Shown here: one piece after another, positions 4,607 through 34,441 of the stretch | Numbering within the stretch: the stretch's first letter is position 1 | Layout of the letters: each line of letters starts with the position of its first letter | From: a virus | Lineage: Duplodnaviria > Heunggongvirae > Uroviricota > Caudoviricetes | Length of the DNA stretch: 64,000 nt | IMG/VR virus record: IMGVR_UViG_3300031853_000005 | Span: 53,469 to 117,468 of that record | Direction: 5' to 3' (one strand) | Notes under the pieces: generated by a model | The model's database searches: none | Told to the model about the DNA's origin: nothing | What the model saw: only the letters and a program-made list of their open reading frames with translations | Made by a program: the position numbers and the translations under genes

Positions 4607-4915
4607 ATGACAAAACGCGAATTGAAGACAGTACGCGATACTTTCAACAATGTTTCAAGAAATTTCACATGGTGCGACAACTATGCAACTGAAGAGCTGA
4701 AAACACTCTTCAAAATTCTTGACAGTTTCGGTCTTTCCTGGTCATGCACCGAGGACAAATACCACTGGATCGATGGAAAACCTACAACAAAAAGTCAAGT
4801 CTATAGAATCGAAAAAGATGAGGAAATTTTGGAAACCGTCCTGATCATTGACAGATACTATGGTGCGGATTTTTTGGATAATGGACACTGTGAACTTAAC
4901 TGCTATCTTGCCTGA
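4607..4915 (+). CDS. hypothetical protein (102 aa)
   Basis: ORF with GGAGG RBS. Confidence 0.6.
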   Translation: MTKRELKTVRDTFNNVSRNFTWCDNYATEELKTLFKILDSFGLSWSCTEDKYHWIDGKPTTKSQVYRIEKDEEILETVLIIDRYYGADFLDNGHCELNCYLA

Positions 4916-25176: not shown

Positions 25177-26199
25177 ATGCTGATAGGATTGATTGACGTA
25201 GACGGTCATCACTTCCCGAACCTGTGCCTGATGAAACTGTCGGCGTATCACAAACAGCTTGGAGATGATGTCGAGTGGTATTCAGAAGACAGAGAGATGT
25301 ACGACATTGTGTATATGTCAAAGGTCTTCAATGAAGAATACTCACCAGACATTCCGGAACCAGGCAACACAAGAAAAGTGATCAAAGGCGGGACTGGGTA
25401 TGCCATAAAACTGGAAGGCGATAGGGAAGTATATCACAAGGAGTTAGACCCCCCCCTACAACCTGAGATTGAACACATCTATCCTGATTACAGCTTATAT
25501 CCTGAGTATACTGGATACGGATTGCCGCTGAAGAAACAAACAGCATACGGATTCTTGACACGAGGATGTCCAAGAGGCTGCGGATTCTGTCACGTAGCCC
25601 CAAAGGAGGGAAGATGCAGTCAAAAAGTTGCTGATCTCTCGGAATTCTGGAACGGGCAAGGTAATATTTGTCTCTCTGATCCGAACATTCTGGCTTGCAA
25701 AGATGCTCCTGACTTGCTTCGGCAGTTGGTTGAATCCGGTGCAAAAGTTGAACTGAATCAGGGGATTGATGCCAGACTTATTACTCCTGAGAAAGCTGAT
25801 CTCCTGGCTCACATGAATCTCAAGATGCCGCACTTCGCGATGGACTCCATGCAAGCGATGGAACCGGTCAAGCGAGGACTGAAGCTGTATGTCGAAGCGT
25901 GTAAGAGAGTCAAAGGTAAATGGAACTGGCGAAATGCCAAGGTGTTCTGCCTGACAAACTTCGATACCACACACGAAGAAGACATGATGAGAATCAAGGC
26001 AATTCAGGAATGCGAGTGCTGGCCTTATGTGATGATCTACAACAAGATGACCGCGCCGCAAGTGACCAGAAGATTGCAGAGATGGACAAATGCTCCTGCC
26101 GCATACGCCAGAACGCAGGACTTTGACGAGTATCAGAGATTTACATATAAGAAACCGCCGAAAGAAATCGGGAATCAGAGACGGTTTAATGTGGCGTAA
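25177..26199 (+). CDS. radical SAM enzyme with N-terminal B12-binding-like region
   Basis: CPRGCGFC (CxxxCxxC) cluster motif; N-terminal DVDGHHFPNL. Confidence 0.6.
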   Translation: MLIGLIDVDGHHFPNLCLMKLSAYHKQLGDDVEWYSEDREMYDIVYMSKVFNEEYSPDIPEPGNTRKVIKGGTGYAIKLEGDREVYHKELDPPLQPEIEHIYPDYSLYPEYTGYGLPLKKQTAYGFLTRGCPRGCGFCHVAPKEGRCSQKVADLSEFWNGQGNICLSDPNILACKDAPDLLRQLVESGAKVELNQGIDARLITPEKADLLAHMNLKMPHFAMDSMQAMEPVKRGLKLYVEACKRVKGKWNWRNAKVFCLTNFDTTHEEDMMRIKAIQECECWPYVMIYNKMTAPQVTRRLQRWTNAPAAYARTQDFDEYQRFTYKKPPKEIGNQRRFNVA

Positions 26200-27705: not shown

Positions 27706-28371
27706 CTAAGCTACAAAATTTGGATCTGCAAAAATATCAATGCATTTTTGCTTGTTGCGATTTGCGTTTTTAACAACTGAATGTGGATGAAAGATTTTGA
27801 AATGATCTTCCAGGCGAATATCATAACTCATCCGCTGCATTTCAGTCCAGCGATATTCTGATGCGATCTGCGAAAGACCGAACCAGTCACGGATATCTGC
27901 CGGTCTCTTAACTCTCATCCTGATCATTGCTGGAATCGGTGCAAGAAGAGAGGCGGCGAAGTAGTCAGCTTCTTCTTCCATATCCTTGTAATGTGATGGT
28001 GTTAATATCGCTTCGCCTGATTCAAGCAGTTCGATGAAATGTCCTGATGCGATATGCCCCAGCTCATGGGCTGTTGTCCAGCGGATTCTCTGCTTGCTGG
28101 CGTTGTATTTATCGGATGAATTAATCGCAATCAGATATCTGCCGGTTGATGGTTCATAGTTTGTGCATCCGTCCAGGCTGTTGCAGGCTTGAACAACTTC
28201 CTGATAAGTTACGCTGTTGATCTCAGCAAGTTTTTCGTATGTGATATGTCTGCACCTGGCGATCTTTCTTTCGATGGCGATTGGCTCAATAGGGAATGAA
28301 GCAAAGCGAAGAAAACCATCGTAAAGATCAAACACAATATCATCGATTCTTTGTTTGACTTGTTCTCTCAT
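27706..28371 (-). CDS. ImmA/IrrE-family zinc metalloprotease (anti-repressor protease)
   Basis: HELGHIASGH HExxH motif; coupled to upstream XRE gene by 4-nt overlap. Confidence 0.7.
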   Translation of the reverse strand: MREQVKQRIDDIVFDLYDGFLRFASFPIEPIAIERKIARCRHITYEKLAEINSVTYQEVVQACNSLDGCTNYEPSTGRYLIAINSSDKYNASKQRIRWTTAHELGHIASGHFIELLESGEAILTPSHYKDMEEEADYFAASLLAPIPAMIRMRVKRPADIRDWFGLSQIASEYRWTEMQRMSYDIRLEDHFKIFHPHSVVKNANRNKQKCIDIFADPNFVA

Positions 28372-28724
28372 TTCTCTTTGAATGCGTATTCGAAACCAGC
28401 GCGAAGAATGTTGTTCGCTTTTGTGCGGTCTTCTGGTTTGAGATTTTGAATGGCACGTTGCAGACTGATAAGATCAGAGTCAACCAATGATTCTGGATTC
28501 TCCTTCAGATCGGTTCTTCCGCAGAGATAGTCAACCGACACATGAAAGTATTGTGCAACTGCATTGATGCGATCTGTACCAGGCGTACTTTTCGGCCAGC
28601 GATAGGACGATCCGGCAGAGAAGCCAAGATCACGCTCCATCCTGGCAAGCGATATTCCTCGCTCTGCGCAAAGATCTTTGACACGGCTGAGAAGAACAGC
28701 GTTGTTCATGGATTCTTTTGCCAT
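28368..28724 (-). CDS. XRE-family helix-turn-helix transcriptional repressor
   Basis: LSRVKDLCAERGISLARMERDLGFSAGSSYRWP HTH pattern. Confidence 0.7.
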   Translation of the reverse strand: MAKESMNNAVLLSRVKDLCAERGISLARMERDLGFSAGSSYRWPKSTPGTDRINAVAQYFHVSVDYLCGRTDLKENPESLVDSDLISLQRAIQNLKPEDRTKANNILRAGFEYAFKEK

Positions 28725-28880: not shown

Positions 28881-29919
28881 GTCAACAGAAAAACAAGAAA
28901 ATTTGCATGAAGTGAGGGTGATTTTGTTGAATTTGGAGAAGTTTAATAGCATCAATGAGCTGAGAAGTTCGATTGAAGTAAGAAAGAAGTTCGTTGAAGA
29001 GTTTGAGATTCCGATTGATGTTTTCGAAGATCCTTATTTCAGCCAGAGATTGATCACTCTTAATCAGCTATACAATTGTCGCAAACTGTGGGATATGTTC
29101 ATTCAAGAAGTTTCAAGCTTTGAGTCATTTGATGATTACATCAGGTTCTATGAGTTTGAAGCTGCCGCCTGGAGGAATTATTTCAAGGATGCTGAATCAT
29201 ATATCACAAATGATCTGATTCAAAACAGCATAAAAAACGATATGATCTATCTTCCAGATGATGAGAACGTTCTTACTTGGCAAGATCATGGAAAGATGTT
29301 TATCAAATTCAGTTTCAAAGATAACGGATATGCAATGATGCATAAGATGCTACCAGAAAAGTTTACCTGCGAAACCTGGGCTGATATGTTGGATGATGGT
29401 CATCATCCTGAACATCTGAAGTACAGCAAAGAGTTCATGAAGAGAGCGTTTTTCGGATTCAGATTTCGCGGAATCCAGTTGCGATACATAATCTTCGGAA
29501 TGATCAGAGAAGGGATGAACAGGCTGACCGCTTCAAGATTCAGATACCAGACGATAGATGAACTTGTGTTTCAGATTACTGGTATTGTTGAACGCAGCGA
29601 CATCAATAGAATTCTGGATGACATTCCGAATCAGTTCGGTGAAACAGTCGATGTGGATATCATACAGGTTCAGGCTATCGGACACAAAGCGGAATATGGA
29701 TTCTTGGCTGAATCGATGCTGTCAGGAAATGTTAAGGTTATCGGATGTGATAACAAGTTCATCAATCAGGTCATGCTTTATATGAAGCGAGATTTGTTCT
29801 CTGCGGATGATCTGATCTTCAATTCGGATGGACACCTGGCGAAATTCTTAAACCCAATTGAGAATCCTTTTACATATATAAATCGCCCAGCAAAATTTAA
29901 TATTCCAGGGCTTTATTAA
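28864..29919 (+). CDS. hypothetical protein (~350 aa), start uncertain
   Basis: ORF 28852..29919; first codon of track lies inside -35 box so a later start is assumed. Confidence 0.5.
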   Translation: MKIFLMSTEKQENLHEVRVILLNLEKFNSINELRSSIEVRKKFVEEFEIPIDVFEDPYFSQRLITLNQLYNCRKLWDMFIQEVSSFESFDDYIRFYEFEAAAWRNYFKDAESYITNDLIQNSIKNDMIYLPDDENVLTWQDHGKMFIKFSFKDNGYAMMHKMLPEKFTCETWADMLDDGHHPEHLKYSKEFMKRAFFGFRFRGIQLRYIIFGMIREGMNRLTASRFRYQTIDELVFQITGIVERSDINRILDDIPNQFGETVDVDIIQVQAIGHKAEYGFLAESMLSGNVKVIGCDNKFINQVMLYMKRDLFSADDLIFNSDGHLAKFLNPIENPFTYINRPAKFNIPGLY

Positions 29920-29973
29920 GCCCTGTTTATATAAATCAATATACAATGGTCAATGACCAAAAGGAGAAGAGGA

Positions 29974-30099
29974 AATGGCAAACAGAGCGAAAGGCTGGAA
30001 TCTGAAGAACACATATGTTCAGAAGATGGAGAACAAGCAGAAGAAGCGTGACCGCAAGGAACGTATCAAAGAGTATGAAAAGATGAAGAAACGCGCATG
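29974..30099 (+). CDS. small basic protein (41 aa)
   Basis: GGAGAAGAGG RBS + ATG; K/R-rich. Confidence 0.3.
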
Positions 30100-30140
30100 A
30101 GATTGATACATATGGCAACAATAGAAGGTGGTGATGATAG

Positions 30141-32059
30141 GTGAAACATTATGGTGATATCACTAAACTGAAAGGCAGTGAACTTCCAGTTGTAGATTGT
30201 ATTACTGGTGGTTCACCTTGTTAGTCAGGATCTTTCTGTAGCTGGGAATCGCGCTGGTCTTGCTGGTGAACGATCTGGCTTGTTCATGGAACAGATTCGA
30301 ATTGTTAGGGAGATGAGAGAACATGATAGAGAACAAGGAAGAACTGGATCTGATGTCAGACCGCGATTCATGGTCTGGGAGAACGTCAAAGGCTGCTTCA
30401 ACAGCAACAAAGGAAAAGACTTCCAGGCAGTCCTCACGGAAATCTTCCGTATCGCAGTCCCGGATGCCCCTGATGTGCCTATGCCTGATTCGGGAAAATG
30501 GCCCTACTCCGGACTCCTACTCGATGAGGTGGGGGGGGGTATCAGTTGCCTGGAGGCTACACGACGCTCAATACTGGGGTGTACCCCAGCGTCGTGAGAG
30601 AGTCGCGATTGTCGCAGATTTTGGAGGATTGTCCGCAGGAGAAATACTATTTGAGTCCGAAAGCCTGCAAGGGAATCCTAACGAGAGCGGAGAGGCGCGG
30701 CAAGGAACTTCCACCGGAGCTGAAAGCAGCACTGATTGCGCAGTCAGCGTAAACGAAGACCGTGTTATTTCAAGTACAGTGGGGGGGTATATGCAAGCTT
30801 CCGAGAACCAGGTTGCAACTCTGATGGCAAGGGATTTCAAAGATCCCCAGATCATCATGAGAGCCTGATTGAAGATGCGGATAAGAATGGGTCGCAAGAG
30901 AAAACATTCTGTCTGGAAGGTAATGGTCAGAGACCATCACACCGAGGCGATGGATACATAGAATCAGACATCATGTACACGTTGAATAGTATTGAGCAAC
31001 ACGCGGTTTATGCTTTTGATTCTCTTTCCAGTAACAGCATGAAGTCCAAGAATCCACATAGCGGATGCAGAAAAGTTGAAGTGTCGAAAACACTTGATTG
31101 TTTTGATCCGAATCCATCAAAGAACCAGGGCGGTATTGCGGTTGTTGAAAGATGCGCCGGGTTCAAAGCTGGACAAAGCATGGCTGGAAGTCTTGGATAC
31201 GAAGATGAAATAAGTCCTACGCTTTCTGCAATGCCAAGTGGATTAGAGCCAACGGTGGTCATTTATGGAAATGAATAGGTTAATCTACGATGCCAGGGGG
31301 AATGGTGGGGGTATGATTAGCCCTACGATTACTGGTGATCATCAGGATAGGATCACAGATTATACTGCAATCATTGTAGAGTGTTATGCCAAACCTGGAT
31401 TTGATCGTTATGTGAAACAGGATATTTCAGATACGATCAGAGCATCCGGTGGAGATGTAGGGGGGGGCAGCGAAATGCTGATCGTTACACATGAGAGTGT
31501 ATGACGGTTGTCGGAGACACAATTACGAGTGTCTGGGTGAAGTATGTTGCACCGTACAGGCGTTCTGGGGTACAGGTGGGGGCAACATGCCGATAGTTCT
31601 GGAAGAAAAATCCATAATAAAAGCATCGTTTGATGATGATATTAACGATAAGAATTTGTGTGTGAATGGAAAGAAGGTGGTCGAATGAATGGTGTTTTGT
31701 CTGTAAGAAGACTTACACCTCTTTGACTTGAGTGCGAAAGACTTCAGGGAATGCCTGACGGTTGGACGGACATTGGTGATTGGGTAGACGAAAAAGGCAA
31801 GAAGCACAAAGCAGCGGACAGCCCACGTTATAAAGCCCTCGGAAACGGAATCGCATTGCCTTTTTGGGAATGGCTTCTCGGAAGAATTTCTGCTCAGTAT
31901 GACAGACCGGCTACACTTGGCAGCTTGTTTGATGGTATCGCAAGTTTTCCCCTGGCATGGTCAAAGTTCAACGGCAAAGAGAATTGTCTGTGGAGTTCTG
32001 AAATCGAACAGTTTCCGATTGCTGTAGCAAAGAAACATTTTCCAGATACGGAGGAATAA
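30141..32059 (+). pseudogene. C5-cytosine DNA methyltransferase, circularly permuted (IV-VI-VIII-TRD-IX-X then I) and disrupted by frameshifts and in-frame stops
   Basis: Across three frames: GDITKL..ITGGSPC (motif IV), QDLSVAGNRAGLAGERSGLF, MVWENVKG (VI), GVPQRRERVAIVADFGG (VIII), EKYYLSPK, ATLMARDFKDPQII, ISPTLSA, RRLTPL*LECERLQGMPDGWT, RYKALGNGIALPF (X), then LFDGIASFPLAW..ENCLWSSEIEQFPIAVAKKHFPD (motif I region) immediately before the stop. Confidence 0.75.
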
Positions 32060-32061
32060 CA

Positions 32062-32283
32062 ATGTTATGCAGTCGTTGCGGAGAAGAAATGCATCACTTT
32101 ATCGGAGCAGATGGAAAACGGTTAACTGAATTTCTGCGTTGTCCGAAGTGCTGGCTTGAAACAAAGCGGATGCGCTTTCATTTTGAGCCAGAAAGTACAA
32201 TAGAAAATAACCATAAAAAGGATGTGAAGAAAGTTGCTGGTAAACGGCGAAAGAGCACTGGCGTATGTCGTAAGCATCGATGA
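32062..32283 (+). CDS. zinc-ribbon protein (73 aa)
   Basis: CSRCG..(n)..CPKC. Confidence 0.45.
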   Translation: MLCSRCGEEMHHFIGADGKRLTEFLRCPKCWLETKRMRFHFEPESTIENNHKKDVKKVAGKRRKSTGVCRKHR

Positions 32284-33415
32284 GATCCAGCCGCTTGAAG
32301 GCTATGATCGCGTTGAATATGCGAGAACCAATGGCTGGTGGTGTATCATCGGCAAGGCTGATGGTATGAAGGTTGGGGATAAAGCAGTCTACTTTGAAGT
32401 GGACAGCAAAGTTCCTTCAACAGATAAGAGATTTGAGTTCCTTGAAAAGCGAAACTACAAGATCAAGACTCAGAAGATGTGCAAGGTATACAGCCAGGGA
32501 CTTCTGATGCCGCTGTCTGTATTTCCTGAACTTGGTGATGCGAAAGTGGGAACTGACGTAACCAAGAAGCTCAACATTACATACGCAGATCCAGAAGACA
32601 ATCAGCGCAAGGGCGGCGGTGATCCGAACGCTAAGTATAAATCAATGGCTGCGAGACATCAGAAGCTTTTCAAGTCAAAGCCTATTCGTTGGATGATGCG
32701 TCGCAAATGGGGCAAGAAACTGATGTTCTTGTTTTTCGGCAGAAAGAAAGATAAGCCGAAAGGATTTCCGTCTTTCGTTACGAAGACTGACGAAGAGCGT
32801 GTAGAGAACCAGCCGTGGAGAGTCGGAGACGGCAAGACCTATCTGGCAACCGAGAAGCTTGACGGTACGTCATGCACTTATGCTCTGAGGAGAATTCCTA
32901 AGAAGGCATTTCATAAAGCTGACTATGAGTTCTATGTTTGTTCCCGTAATGTCCGGCAGAAGGACGAAGACCAGAAGTGCTATCATGATCACAATATCTA
33001 CTGGGATCTCGCGTTCAAGTATGATATTGAAAAGCATCTGCGAGAGTTCCTGATCTGGCATCAGTCGTATGACTGGGTATGCATTCAGGGCGAGGGAGTC
33101 GGTTCTGTTCAGGGTAATCCTCTAAAGCTGAAAGAAGATGATCTGTACGTCTTCAACTTCATCGATTCGGTCAACGGGAGGTATCCTTCCGATCTTGGAA
33201 AGAAGACGATTGAAGAGTGGGGAATGAAGTGGGTTCCGATCCTCGGCGAAGTCACGCTGCCGGATACGATGGAAGCTCTGAAGGAAACCGCTGATGGCAA
33301 GTCTGTAGTGAATCCTGCGGTTGACAGAGAGGGTATCGTCTACAGATCCCTTGATGGTAAAGACTCATTCAAGAATGTTTCAAGAAAGTATCTTCTGAAA
33401 CATCAGAACGCTTAA
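32234..33415 (+). CDS. ATP-dependent RNA ligase (nucleotidyltransferase motifs I, IV, V)
   Basis: KLDGTS (motif I lysine), DREGIVYRS (EGxV), FKNVSRKYLLK; TTG start in track. Confidence 0.65.
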   Translation: MLVNGERALAYVVSIDEIQPLEGYDRVEYARTNGWWCIIGKADGMKVGDKAVYFEVDSKVPSTDKRFEFLEKRNYKIKTQKMCKVYSQGLLMPLSVFPELGDAKVGTDVTKKLNITYADPEDNQRKGGGDPNAKYKSMAARHQKLFKSKPIRWMMRRKWGKKLMFLFFGRKKDKPKGFPSFVTKTDEERVENQPWRVGDGKTYLATEKLDGTSCTYALRRIPKKAFHKADYEFYVCSRNVRQKDEDQKCYHDHNIYWDLAFKYDIEKHLREFLIWHQSYDWVCIQGEGVGSVQGNPLKLKEDDLYVFNFIDSVNGRYPSDLGKKTIEEWGMKWVPILGEVTLPDTMEALKETADGKSVVNPAVDREGIVYRSLDGKDSFKNVSRKYLLKHQNA

Positions 33416-33433: not shown

Positions 33434-34441
33434 ATGAAACCTAAATTTTACATGCTGGTCGGTCTTCCTGGAAGTGGTAAGTCTCAGATTGCGGAAGAAT
33501 ATCGGCAACATTATGTTTGCGTACACTCTTCTGATGCGATCCGTAAGGAGCTTTACGGTGACGAGACTGATCAGAAACATAACGCAGAAGTCTTTGCTGA
33601 ACTTCACAAGAGAATCAAGAGATGTCTTAGCGACGGCTTTGATACCATGTACGATGCCTGCAATATCAGCAAGAAGCGCAGAGCGGCGTTTCTGAAAGAG
33701 CTGAAGAACATTGACTGCGAGAAGATCTGCCTCTGTGTGATGACTCCGTATGAGATCTGCTTGGAACGCAACAAGGCAAGAGATAGATCCATTCCGGAAC
33801 ACGCAATCAAGAAAATGTATCTCAATTGGTGTCCGCCTGATGTTGCTGAAGGATTCGATAGCGTGAAACTTCTGTTCCCGTTTGAGATTGAGAAGTCGTT
33901 TGAGAAATATGATCTCGATAATCTCTTCCGCAAAGGAACGGAGTTCATGAAGTTTGACCAGAAGAACAGGCATCATTCTCTGACGGTTGGCGAACACTGC
34001 TGGGCTGCTGCAAATTTTGTGTCCGATCTGATAAATAAGTATCATGACGTGTCGATAATAAAATTTAGAGAAGATGTTTTGGATAATCTGTGTCTTGTCG
34101 AGGATGCCGCTTGGCTTCATGATATAGGCAAACCGTTCACTGCTTCTTACTACAATGGGCGCGGTGAAAAGACGGACGAATTACACTATTATCAGCATCA
34201 TTGTGTTGGCGCGTATGACAGTATCTTCTATCTTAGAAACAATACTCCTGCGCGTGATCTGGATGATGAGTATGAAAAGTCGAGATGGCTTGCAATTTCC
34301 AACCTGATTTACTGGCACATGCATCCATTTACTGCCTGGAAGCAATCTTATAAAGCGATGAACCGTGACAGAAAGCTGATGTCGGAACGGACATTCAGGA
34401 ACGTTCTGCTTCTTTATGAAGCTGATAGGTCTTCGCACTGA
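33434..34441 (+). CDS. polynucleotide kinase (P-loop) fused to HD phosphohydrolase domain (Pnkp-like RNA/DNA end-healing enzyme)
   Basis: LVGLPGSGKS Walker A; C-terminal H..HD signature HSLTVGEHCW...LHDIGKP. Confidence 0.7.
   Translation: MKPKFYMLVGLPGSGKSQIAEEYRQHYVCVHSSDAIRKELYGDETDQKHNAEVFAELHKRIKRCLSDGFDTMYDACNISKKRRAAFLKELKNIDCEKICLCVMTPYEICLERNKARDRSIPEHAIKKMYLNWCPPDVAEGFDSVKLLFPFEIEKSFEKYDLDNLFRKGTEFMKFDQKNRHHSLTVGEHCWAAANFVSDLINKYHDVSIIKFREDVLDNLCLVEDAAWLHDIGKPFTASYYNGRGEKTDELHYYQHHCVGAYDSIFYLRNNTPARDLDDEYEKSRWLAISNLIYWHMHPFTAWKQSYKAMNRDRKLMSERTFRNVLLLYEADRSSH

Follow-up and report, generated by a model that had tools for sequence, protein, structure and literature searches.

Gene layout and motif order

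The window analysed here, a stretch of 64,000 nucleotides of phage DNA, carries a permuted C5-cytosine methyltransferase gene in a disrupted state at positions 30141..32059. This and all other features described below lie on the plus strand. A Shine-Dalgarno-like site read from the sequence, AAGGTGG at 30125..30131, stands 9 nt 5' of a GTG at 30141 that is the first codon of VKHYGDITKLKGSELPVVDCITGGSPC; relatives have GAGGTGA or GGAGG at an equal distance from the start. Since the same start is used across the permuted family, the "truncated 5' start" of the original prediction does not hold. A TAA at 32057-32059 ends ..LFDGIASFPLAW..SSEIEQFPIAVAKKHFPDTEE, and the peptides quoted in that prediction are all recovered at their positions when the sequence is read.

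Between these ends the motif order is III/IV-VIII, target-recognition modules, IX-X and then I-II. Motifs VI (WENVKG), VIII (GVPQRRERV) and X (LGNGIALP) are all present. Alignment to Pfam PF00145 gives a permuted order, in which the gene head corresponds to profile positions 46-128 (E 3.7e-25), the IX/X block to positions 275-321 and the C-terminal tail to positions 4-43. Joining the tail to the head yields a match over 4-128 with no break (E 7.2e-32), which bears out the claim that the motif I block is C-terminal and that connecting the 3' end to the 5' end restores the canonical order. The matches of head, tail and join are far beyond chance, homologue matches to the window gene reach E values as low as 1e-170, and the significant profile match places the gene in the C5-cytosine DNA methyltransferase superfamily PF00145.

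Motif I reads LFDGIASF in the window and its five closest relatives and LFDGIGGF in the rest of the family. The variant is conserved, with a dN/dS of 0.02-0.07 for the tail, and a strongly conserved Met replaces the conserved Phe in motif IX of the window sub-clade. Because of the non-canonical motif I (FDGIAS vs FxGxGG) and the Met in motif IX, this sub-clade may not act as a standard methyltransferase.

The GC content rises to 0.51-0.54 only at about 30250-31000, compared with a window mean of ~0.45 and 0.34-0.42 in the upstream flank. The region had been described as GC-richer than its flanks, which is correct for this part but not for the rest of the interval. As an argument for recent acquisition the GC content is weak, but recombination is evident from the mosaic of alleles shared with relatives.

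Segments and lesions of the window copy

A point absent from the original prediction is that the locus is not one ORF. Its 1919 nt are not a multiple of 3 and have no single reading frame, and tblastn resolves homologous pieces that are spread over three frames and interrupted by six frame changes and an in-frame TGA. Segment 1 (30141..30221, frame a; tblastn, Pfam) encodes VKHYGDITKLKGSELPVVDCITGGSPC, which covers motif III and the part of motif IV that ends with the catalytic Cys, and matches homologue residues 1-27 at 85% identity. Residues 27 and 28 are direct neighbours in the homologue, and in the window they lie 4 nt apart owing to a TAGT insertion at Pro-Cys/Gln (30222..30225, placement ambiguous by 1-2 nt) that introduces a TAG stop and a frameshift. 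The catalytic Pro-Cys-Gln of motif IV is thus split across frames, GGSPC being followed by the insertion with its TAG and then by QDLSVAG in another frame. The close relative L165 is intact here and reads GGSPCQDLS. The 4-nt insertion is known from the single window sequence only.

The next four segments were delineated by tblastn. Segment 2 (30226..30537, frame b; QDLSVAG..ERSGLF..FMVWENVKG..DEVGG) holds the rest of motif IV and motifs VI and VII. Segment 3 (30539..30868, frame c) comprises VSVAWRLHDAQYWGVPQRRERVAIVADFGG (motif VIII), the linker and the ..TLMARDFKDPQII module, and ends in TGA. Segment 4 (30892..31278, frame b) encodes three target-recognition-like modules (CLEGNG..HAV; AFDSLSSNSMKS..GGIAVV; CAGFKAGQ..PTVVIY) and ends at a TAG; its 3' end is overlapped by the ATG of segment 5 (31265..31504, frame c), which encodes the MEMNRLIYDARGNGGG..TGDHQDRITDYTA.. 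module. Segment 6 (31491..31688, frame a; tblastn) encodes the ..VYDGCRRHNYECLGEVCCTVQAFWGTGGGNMPIVLEE module.

The first half of motif IX, VRRLTPL, occupies 31703..31726 and runs into an in-frame TGA at 31724-31726, within a 6-nt insertion relative to L165. The window therefore reads RRLTPL-TGA-LECERLQGMPD vs RRLTPTECERLQGMPD in L165. The tail (31727..32059, frame c; Pfam, tblastn) begins with the rest of motif IX, LECERLQGMPDGW, and continues through motif X, with GNG at 31841-31849, the linker AQYDRPATLGS, the motif I variant LFDGIASF at 31925-31948 and the motif II block SSEIEQFPIAVAKKHFPD at 31994-32047 to the TAA. The 4-nt insertion, an extra G before motif VIII, the TGA in motif IX and the modules in alternating frames lead us to regard the window copy as an inactivated allele. 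Stop-codon reassignment was considered for the fragmented ORFs and rejected, since the reading frame shifts from piece to piece and each of the three stop codons is found.

Close relatives and selection

The useful close relatives, among them L165, L166, L167 and L169, were obtained from a metagenome scan. L165 is 91-99% identical to the window in nucleotide sequence and has breaks near 30870 (preceding segment 4), 31265 and 31485, as the window does. The TGA in motif IX is missing from L165, L167 and L169 and present in L166. Even in the better-preserved L165, L167 and L169 the gene is in several ORFs, so that what appears broken in the window may partly be a normal multi-chain or phase-variable state. 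The permuted layout also occurs in L085, a syntenic relative, and in five close relatives. No near-identical phage was found in GenBank, and relatives in IMG/VR have at most 73% identity over the N-terminal part.

Comparison of sub-clade relatives, at dS values reaching 2, gives a dN/dS of 0.03-0.24 in the N-terminal catalytic part and of 0.02-0.07 in the tail. Head and tail are strongly constrained by purifying selection in the window sub-clade.

Poly-G tracts

All three G runs of at least 6 in the 64-kb window fall inside the methyltransferase gene. The first, a G9 at 30531..30539, has one G in excess for the frame; it is G8 in L165, L167 and L169 and G9 in L166. The second is an in-frame G7 at 30781..30787, where L165 reads GGCGGC, and the third is a G8 within segment 5 at 31460-31467, which is G7 in L165 and G9 in L166. 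All three frames close at most ~15 codons past the 31460 tract. The idea that every frame change sits at a poly-G tract was rejected: only the break at 30531 does, and those near 30222, 30870, 31265, 31485, 31690 and 31724 are outside such tracts.

Family genes contain up to ten poly-G tracts. In 72 genes, runs of G7 or longer have a density of 0.94 per kb vs 0.018 per kb in the flanks, an enrichment of about 50-fold. At gene position ~608 of another clade, 18 of the 20 loci with G6 or G7 have a fused ORF, and the gene is split in all 7 of 7 with G8; L016 and L007 exemplify the fused G7 and split G8 types. In the G8-type split, the first ORF ends after motif VIII and an overlapping second ORF encodes the modules and remaining motifs; a conserved domain is encoded by the second frame of the 75-150 codons over which the two overlap. 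Tract length within the ORF differs among close relatives and shifts the frame, as in phase-variable genes. A literature search of incomplete coverage found no poly-G tracts in phage C5-methyltransferases.

A nested ORF in the +1 frame

A further ORF in the +1 frame is nested within the gene. Its N-terminal part (30323..30538 in the ORF list; ATG at 30323, MIENKEEL..SMRWGG) is severed by the extra G from its C-terminal part (30546..30752), which ends in ..SRLSQILEDCPQEKYYLSPKACKGILTRAERRGKELPPELKAALIAQSA and a stop codon and overlaps main-frame motif VIII and the linker. L165, L167 and L169 have an intact 144-aa equivalent. An alternative-frame ATG inside motif VIII is kept by most relatives and lost in the window.

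The +1 overlapping ORF is found family-wide and is also nested in phage P1 dmt, represented by L248 at 2222-2716. Its last ~47 codons, for which three helices are predicted, are constrained by purifying selection in Firmicutes, Proteobacteria and Actinobacteria phages. LVADFGG in the main frame and LSQILE in the alternative frame are conserved on identical nucleotides, which makes a ribosomal frameshift just after QRRxR an unlikely way to reach the +1 peptide; frameshifting 5' of motif VIII could still give access to it. Searches with the peptide returned no Pfam or NCBIfam family, only a weak match to PHROG 16143, and neither a sequence nor a fold match in the PDB. A supposed likeness to the segment after motif VIII of Dcm-type enzymes found no confirmation. 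Nested genes in C5-methyltransferases did not appear in a literature search of incomplete coverage.

A family of permuted phage methyltransferases

Motif I is not the opening motif of any of the best 120 database matches. Nearly all begin with M-x-H-x-GDITK, and every C-terminus listed among them carries the motif II block. These proteins are 412-1115 aa long. Intact members of the family include P0087 (412 aa) and P0008 (501 aa). Across 79 IMG/VR loci, homology runs from residue 1 with a Shine-Dalgarno site present, and many of the loci are intact ORFs (start codons: ATG 63, GTG 10, ATA 5, TTG 1). No motif I was found within 2 kb upstream of the gene in these 79 related viral loci. Intact relatives have a C-terminal motif I. 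The original prediction had named close relatives with normal I-X order as the case that would speak against it; none was found, the nearest relatives all being permuted, and relatives of canonical order lie further off, at ~51-56% identity in the N-terminal region. Family members were found in metagenomes, of the human gut among others, and in prophages of cultured genomes. Public databases label them ordinary methyltransferases, and this large family of permuted phage C5-methyltransferases is apparently undescribed so far.

In phmmer alignments of the family member P0087 with M.HhaI, residues 370-411 match 16-55, 5-60 match 59-114, 132-161 match 146-175 and 295-365 match 267-325, which maps the chain break between M.HhaI residues 55 and 59. 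The AlphaFold model of P0087 has a pLDDT of 80-94 in the catalytic core, and its best Foldseek matches are M.HhaI, M.HaeIII and M.MpeI. The chain opens between motifs II and III, and motif X leads on into motif I, which is the topology designated Type B. Between motifs VIII and IX, recurrent modules of ~40 aa with the core (S/T)-L-x-A...G...P-x-V are shuffled among homologues.

Comparison with known systems

C5-methyltransferases are a textbook case of fixed motif order. A 2018 study found Type B most active when engineered and absent from natural enzymes (PMC5944983). The permuted cp62M.MpeI and cp58M.SssI, which have the Type B break point, were the most active of all permutants tested, and the authors asked why nature avoids the II/III break (PMC5944983). 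Our own literature search, of incomplete coverage, also found no natural Type B permutants. The two constructs share the topology of the window family, with the N-terminus between II and III and motif X joined to I directly or by a short linker. They are, however, laboratory enzymes monospecific for CG, whereas the window family is natural and has tandem modules, poly-G tracts and a nested ORF.

In the natural permutants of Type H (M.BssHII, M.Alw26I, M2.Eco31I, M.Esp3I and M2.BsaI), motif X precedes motif I (PMC5944983). The window family likewise consists of natural permutants of the same superfamily with X before I. The Type H break, however, lies in the variable region and gives IX-X followed by I-VIII, whereas the window family has III-X first and only I-II moved; the window gene, with the order III-VIII, modules, IX-X, I-II, is not of Type H.

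M.SPRI, M.Phi3TI, M.H2I and M.phiBssHII are multispecific C5-methyltransferases of Bacillus phages. Several short domains for target recognition stand in tandem between their motifs VIII and IX, and the enzymes presumably guard against a large number of host restriction enzymes. To our knowledge they keep the canonical I-X order. References on these enzymes are given in PMC8936443. The window family is also phage-encoded with its modules between VIII and IX, but it has more modules and more shuffling at 412-1115 aa, and its multispecificity is putative.

M.AquI is a split C5-methyltransferase whose two polypeptides are separated after motif VIII, ahead of the variable region. The G8 relatives at ~608 are likewise split after motif VIII. 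Natural bisected C5-methyltransferases are also mentioned in PMC5944983. Unlike in M.AquI, the split ORFs of the family overlap by 75-150 codons with a conserved second-frame domain, and a homopolymer toggles the split. Phasevarions depend on simple-sequence repeats in mod/hsd genes, mainly of bacterial N6-adenine enzymes with one tract. The likeness lies in coding homopolymers that vary in length between near-identical genomes and change the frame; here, in contrast, the enzyme is a phage C5-methyltransferase with up to ten tracts, and switching is a candidate mechanism only.

Interpretation and alternatives

Our data make it very probable that the window carries a gene of a large, naturally permuted phage C5-methyltransferase family, that the copy here is inactivated and unable to encode a complete enzyme, and that the gene is functional or switchable in relatives. 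The protein would start between motifs II and III (M-K-H-L/Y-G-D-I-T-K) and proceed through IV-VIII, a variable module array and IX-X, with a short conserved linker, AQY-x-RP-x-T-L/M-GS, joining motif X to the terminal motifs I-II. Because both chain ends adjoin in canonical C5-methyltransferases, the relocated I-II segment may complete the AdoMet-binding fold. Family members are predicted to be methyltransferases, and intact ones would methylate several target sequences on phage DNA and so evade host restriction. Of the two readings originally offered, a genuine permutant unlike M.BssHII is supported as a trait of the family, with its abundant intact homologues.

The other reading, a local scar, supposes that the 3' part of one normal copy came to lie beside the 5' part of another, either by tandem duplication in the recent past or through a circle that was excised and re-inserted. 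The join of tail to head does restore a canonical ..KKHFPD/..KHYGDITK junction, and duplication is the accepted route to permutation in methyltransferases (PMC5944983). Yet the start, the X-to-I linker and the end recur in all of the best 120 proteins and the 79 viral loci, from many samples, and the syntenic L085 and five close relatives share the arrangement. There are no direct repeats flanking the gene and no upstream motif I, the start codon has its own Shine-Dalgarno site, and the tail is under strong purifying selection. We give a scar almost no credence. The permutation is instead an old family trait. Duplication and truncation is its likely ancient route, most probably through a tandem duplicate that was fused in frame and then trimmed at either end.

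Errors of sequencing or assembly in an intact gene are also very unlikely to account for the frameshifts and the stop. Homopolymers are error-prone, and the window's longest G runs are confined to this gene, but independent contigs carry the same lesions (the G9 and TGA in L166; the breaks near 30870, 31265 and 31485 in L165), which leads us to reject an artefact for most of them. The surrounding genes, including a 1033-aa polymerase, are intact, and differences of 4, 6 and 22 nt are untypical of read errors. Somewhat less remote, though still improbable, is a window copy that remains functional as a multi-chain, phase-variable enzyme, its pieces being translated separately and assembling, with poly-G slippage restoring the frames in part of the population. 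Relatives at dS >1 are all multi-ORF, yet dN/dS for their heads and tails is 0.02-0.24; tract lengths vary among near-identical contigs (G8/G9 at 30531; G7/G8/G9 at 31460) and in the other clade track the fused or split state at ~608; and the module ORFs at 31265 and 31491 open with ATG. However, the 4-nt insertion severs the catalytic Cys from the remaining N-terminal fragment and, as it lies outside repeat tracts, slippage cannot restore that fragment. Motif IX contains a stop codon, every frame closes at most ~15 codons after the 31460 tract, and the alternative-frame ATG in motif VIII of most relatives is lost.

Beyond an inactivated member of a permuted family, the window copy may be a decayed member of an undescribed system combining natural Type B topology, an ancient +1 overlapping gene and poly-G contingency tracts, a reading that we put forward tentatively as possible rather than probable. 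The +1 product would then either be a subunit or regulator in its own right or, in split forms, make up the N-terminal part of the C-terminal chain. The tracts would let the enzyme alternate between a fused, a split and an off state, and possibly between different sets of recognition modules. If confirmed, the +1 ORF and the tracts would extend phage anti-restriction biology by an overlapping gene and a contingency mechanism.

The family would represent a natural use of the II/III break that the engineering study found most active and did not see in nature (PMC5944983). It offers a natural test bed for how far relocation of the AdoMet-binding half-site is tolerated and for the duplication-truncation model of permutation; the window copy itself is ordinary in being an inactivated allele. 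One family member (P0169 / L247) starts in the module region, and both kinds of permutation may therefore occur in the family.

Permuted motif order of the window gene

The C5-cytosine methyltransferase (C5-MTase) gene at 30141-32059 (+) opens with GTG, 9 nt downstream of the SD-like site AAGGTGG on the same strand, and closes with TAA. It does not form a single ORF: ORF calling gives six overlapping ORFs of 65-181 aa spread over three frames, and its 1919 nt are not divisible by three. Three-frame translation and tblastn with homologues gave the order of the homologous pieces, all on the plus strand. KHYGDITKL..GGSPC (30141-30221, frame a) is followed by QDLSVAG..ENV..DEVGG (30226-30537, frame b) and by motif VIII, a linker and an ..ARDFKDP.. 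module that runs into a stop (30539-30868, frame c). Three modules in frame b (30892-31278), one in frame c (31265-31504) and one in frame a (31491-31688) lead to motif IX, which is broken by a TGA at 31724-31726, and then to motifs X, I and II (31703-32059, frame c).

Pfam PF00145 matches the N-terminal catalytic part, or head, at profile positions 46-128 (E 3.7e-25), the IX/X block at 275-321 and the last 50 residues at 4-43; with the tail joined to the head, the match is a single stretch, 4-128 (E 7.2e-32). From these positions and E-values, the permuted motif order noticed in the original prediction is real and beyond chance. The higher GC content also described there is confined to about 30250-31000.

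A natural permutation between motifs II and III

The layout could reflect a permuted enzyme or the local scar of a duplication or excision. We joined the pieces of the gene conceptually into one translation and searched 5.8 billion proteins with it, obtaining 8000 scored matches. None of the best 120 has motif I at the N-terminus, which in nearly all of them reads M-(K/I/R)-H-(L/Y)-G-D-I-T-K; the motif II block (..SEIEEFPIAVTK-x-x-F..) lies at every C-terminus listed, preceded in 107 by motif I, LFDGIGGFPL. These 120 proteins are 412-1115 aa long, with E down to 1e-170, and for many the alignment covers 99-100% of the query. An IMG/VR scan gave 80 loci, every match beginning at query residue 1. 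The start could be located in 79 (ATG 63, GTG 10, TTG 1, ATA 5), with an SD-like site at the usual upstream distance in the loci inspected, and in these 79 the 2 kb upstream of the gene contain no motif I, whichever frame is read. Around the window gene, there are no flanking repeats marking a recent rearrangement. The scar reading is thus wrong, since the layout is a family trait and lacks flanking repeats. A genuine permuted enzyme holds for the gene family (120 best proteins, 79 loci) but not for the window copy, which is an inactivated allele.

Aligned to M.HhaI by phmmer, the 412-aa homologue P0087 matches with residues 370-411 at HhaI 16-55, 5-60 at 59-114, 132-161 at 146-175 and 295-365 at 267-325, an arrangement that places the break of the family between motifs II and III. 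The AlphaFold model of P0087 has a mean pLDDT of 64, with 80-94 in the catalytic core and below 50 in the module region; among its matches, Foldseek ranks M.HhaI, M.HaeIII and M.MpeI highest. Relatives with the canonical order also occur, at a greater distance, as in Streptococcus phage Javan105 and phages NatCom_9291 and NatCom_28274.

Slaska-Kiss et al. 2018 (PMC5944983) screened 20,677 REBASE entries for motif X ahead of motif I and identified 27 permutants in nature, among them M.BssHII, M.Alw26I, M2.Eco31I, M.Esp3I and M2.BsaI, every one broken in the variable region (Type H). The same study engineered Class B permuted enzymes (cp62M.MpeI, cp58M.SssI), in which the chain now starts between motifs II and III, and of all permutants tested these had the highest activity. 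Whereas the natural Type H enzymes are broken in the variable region, the family of the window gene is broken between motifs II and III and has exactly the topology of engineered Class B. It therefore points to a natural Type B permutation, of which we found no later description in the literature searched, whose coverage is incomplete, so that priority is uncertain.

The family member P0169, the product of locus L247 (1952-3190), starts in the module region at a contig end and has the order IX-X-I-II-III..VII; it is either an intermediate of a duplication or a form permuted differently, in a Type H-like way. Another member, P0076 (1115 aa), carries Hint/intein-splicing Pfam domains, which suggest an intein inserted in the methyltransferase.

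Lesions of the window copy

Scanning metagenomes with the 102-aa tail as query yielded five close relatives. L165 shares 91% nucleotide identity with the window over 29900-31525 and 98.8% over 31730-32300. L166 is 95-98% identical upstream and in the tail (98%) but just 77% in the N-terminal catalytic part (L166 3786-4660, window 30144-31016); this unevenness marks it as a recombinant allele, and such mosaics indicate recombination among related phages. The others are L167, L168 and L169.

Lesions were compared by aligning the window with L165 and mapping ORFs in the relatives. A 4-nt insertion between Pro-Cys and Gln is found in the window alone; L165 reads GGSPCQDLSVAG. Because this catalytic-site insertion lies outside any repeat, slippage cannot revert it. 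At 30531-30539, the window and L166 have a G9 tract, and L165, L167 and L169 have G8, which is in frame. Similarly, a 6-nt insertion with TGA in motif IX occurs in the window and L166 and is missing from L165, L167 and L169. Frame breaks near 30870, 31265 and 31485 are common to the window and L165, and the tract at 31460-31467 is G8 in the window, G7 in L165 and G9 in L166. Assembly error is ruled out as the source of the shared lesions, as independent contigs carry several of them alike.

Apparent ATT or ATA starts behind a good SD occur at L165 3506, L166 3783, L167 3883, L169 80 and L085 4358, where the window has GTG; rare start codons in the closest relatives could reflect deliberately low expression.

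Across codons 1-150 of the N-terminal catalytic part, dN/dS among the window, L165, L167 and L169 is 0.03-0.24, and in the tail (MPDGW to end) it is 0.02-0.07 at a synonymous divergence of 1.3-2.2. By these ratios, the lineage of the window gene was, or still is, under selection. Despite the low dN/dS, the module region is in mixed frames in L165, L167 and L169. There, either the enzyme would work as separate chains or the frames would be restored in sub-populations. The window and L165-L169 share a motif I with FDGIAS in place of FDGIGG (window 31925-31948) and a motif IX with Met for the conserved Phe (31748-31753), both conserved at dN/dS 0.02-0.07. In the window, this Met is the ATG of the 102-aa ORF 31751-32059.

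Poly-G tracts

The 64-kb window holds three runs of at least six G, all within the gene (30531-30539, 30781-30787, 31460-31467). In 72 related genes, runs of seven or more G occur at 0.94 per kb, about 50-fold above the 0.018 per kb in 661 kb of flanks; the same 72 genes have no C7+ runs. The nearest relatives have 3-10 tracts each, and frame changes often fall at tracts. Tract lengths vary between near-identical contigs, toggling fused and split ORFs (loci L003-L082 and the window). In one clade, the ORF layout follows the tract at gene position ~608: with G6 or G7 the ORF is fused and full-length (18/20 loci), and with G8 a 206-aa N-terminal ORF is accompanied by a +1 ORF reaching the gene end (7/7). 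The sole run of at least six C in the window is a C8 (25449-25456) inside the radical-SAM ORF 25177-26199.

A nested +1 reading frame

A +1 ORF is nested in the gene, in the window at 30323-30538 and 30546-30752 (+). The later part, in frame a, ends in ..SRLSQILEDCPQEKYYLSPKACKGILTRAERRGKELPPELKAALIAQSA and a stop, and overlaps main-frame motif VIII and the linker. It recurs at L002 2315-2710, L001 3185-3574, L083 1261-1722, L084 1231-1710 and, in phage P1 dmt, L248 2222-2716, and ranges from phage P1 to gut Firmicutes phages, in canonical and permuted genes alike. It ends in a conserved three-helix domain (LSQILE..KYYLS.KAC.GIL.RA..RGK.LP..L..AL), modelled by AlphaFold as three helices, with pLDDT >90 across the final 35 residues; the peptide matches no solved structure or curated family. 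An ATG 15-16 codons 5' of LS-x-IL recurs in most loci and is missing in the window.

By tblastn, the +1 peptide occurs in 115 GenBank phage records (Vibrio, Mycobacterium, Escherichia, Streptococcus, Ruminococcus and others). In every case examined (Javan105, NatCom_9291, Vibrio phage 24, Mycobacterium phage Dove and the phage P1 methyltransferase gene), it lies within the annotated C5-MTase gene, in the +1 frame, in an open ORF of 129-164 codons. Over 45 codons, the +1 frame is stop-free across 89 loci and the third frame has stops in 89/89. In a diverse set, the +1 frame has an identity of 0.50, compared with 0.31 for the main and 0.32 for the third frame. In the overlap, dN/dS is 0.01-0.23 in the +1 frame versus 0.7-2.4 in the main frame, where dS is depressed. 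A profile of the peptide matches 4808 protein clusters (E <= 0.001). Many of the best-scoring are small ORFs, and others, with ~70 residues, the +1 domain, modules, IX-X and I-II, are the C-terminal chain of split genes. These data indicate that the +1 ORF is a real coding frame, and it is under purifying selection; our best guess is that its product partners the methyltransferase or is one of its subunits. We found no description of such an ORF in the literature searched.

Genomic context

The window comes from a large phage genome. On its minus strand, 27706-28724 encodes a repressor and an ImmA-like protease. Just 3' of the gene, a small Zn-ribbon ORF (32062-32283), an RNA ligase (32234-33415) and a polynucleotide kinase-like protein (33434-34441) probably form an RNA-repair cassette, syntenic in L085. 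The L085 gene, which has three ORFs and an ATA start, is likewise placed 3' of a repressor/ImmA module and a ~323-aa ORF, and is followed, as in the window, by the Zn-ribbon ORF, RNA ligase and kinase. At about 4850-4900, it has a 14-residue insertion within motif VIII (WG-KSIVDNRGNLVEAGT-PQRRRR), mirrored in the +1 frame. Farther downstream, the window encodes a DnaB-like helicase, a DNA polymerase and NrdD.
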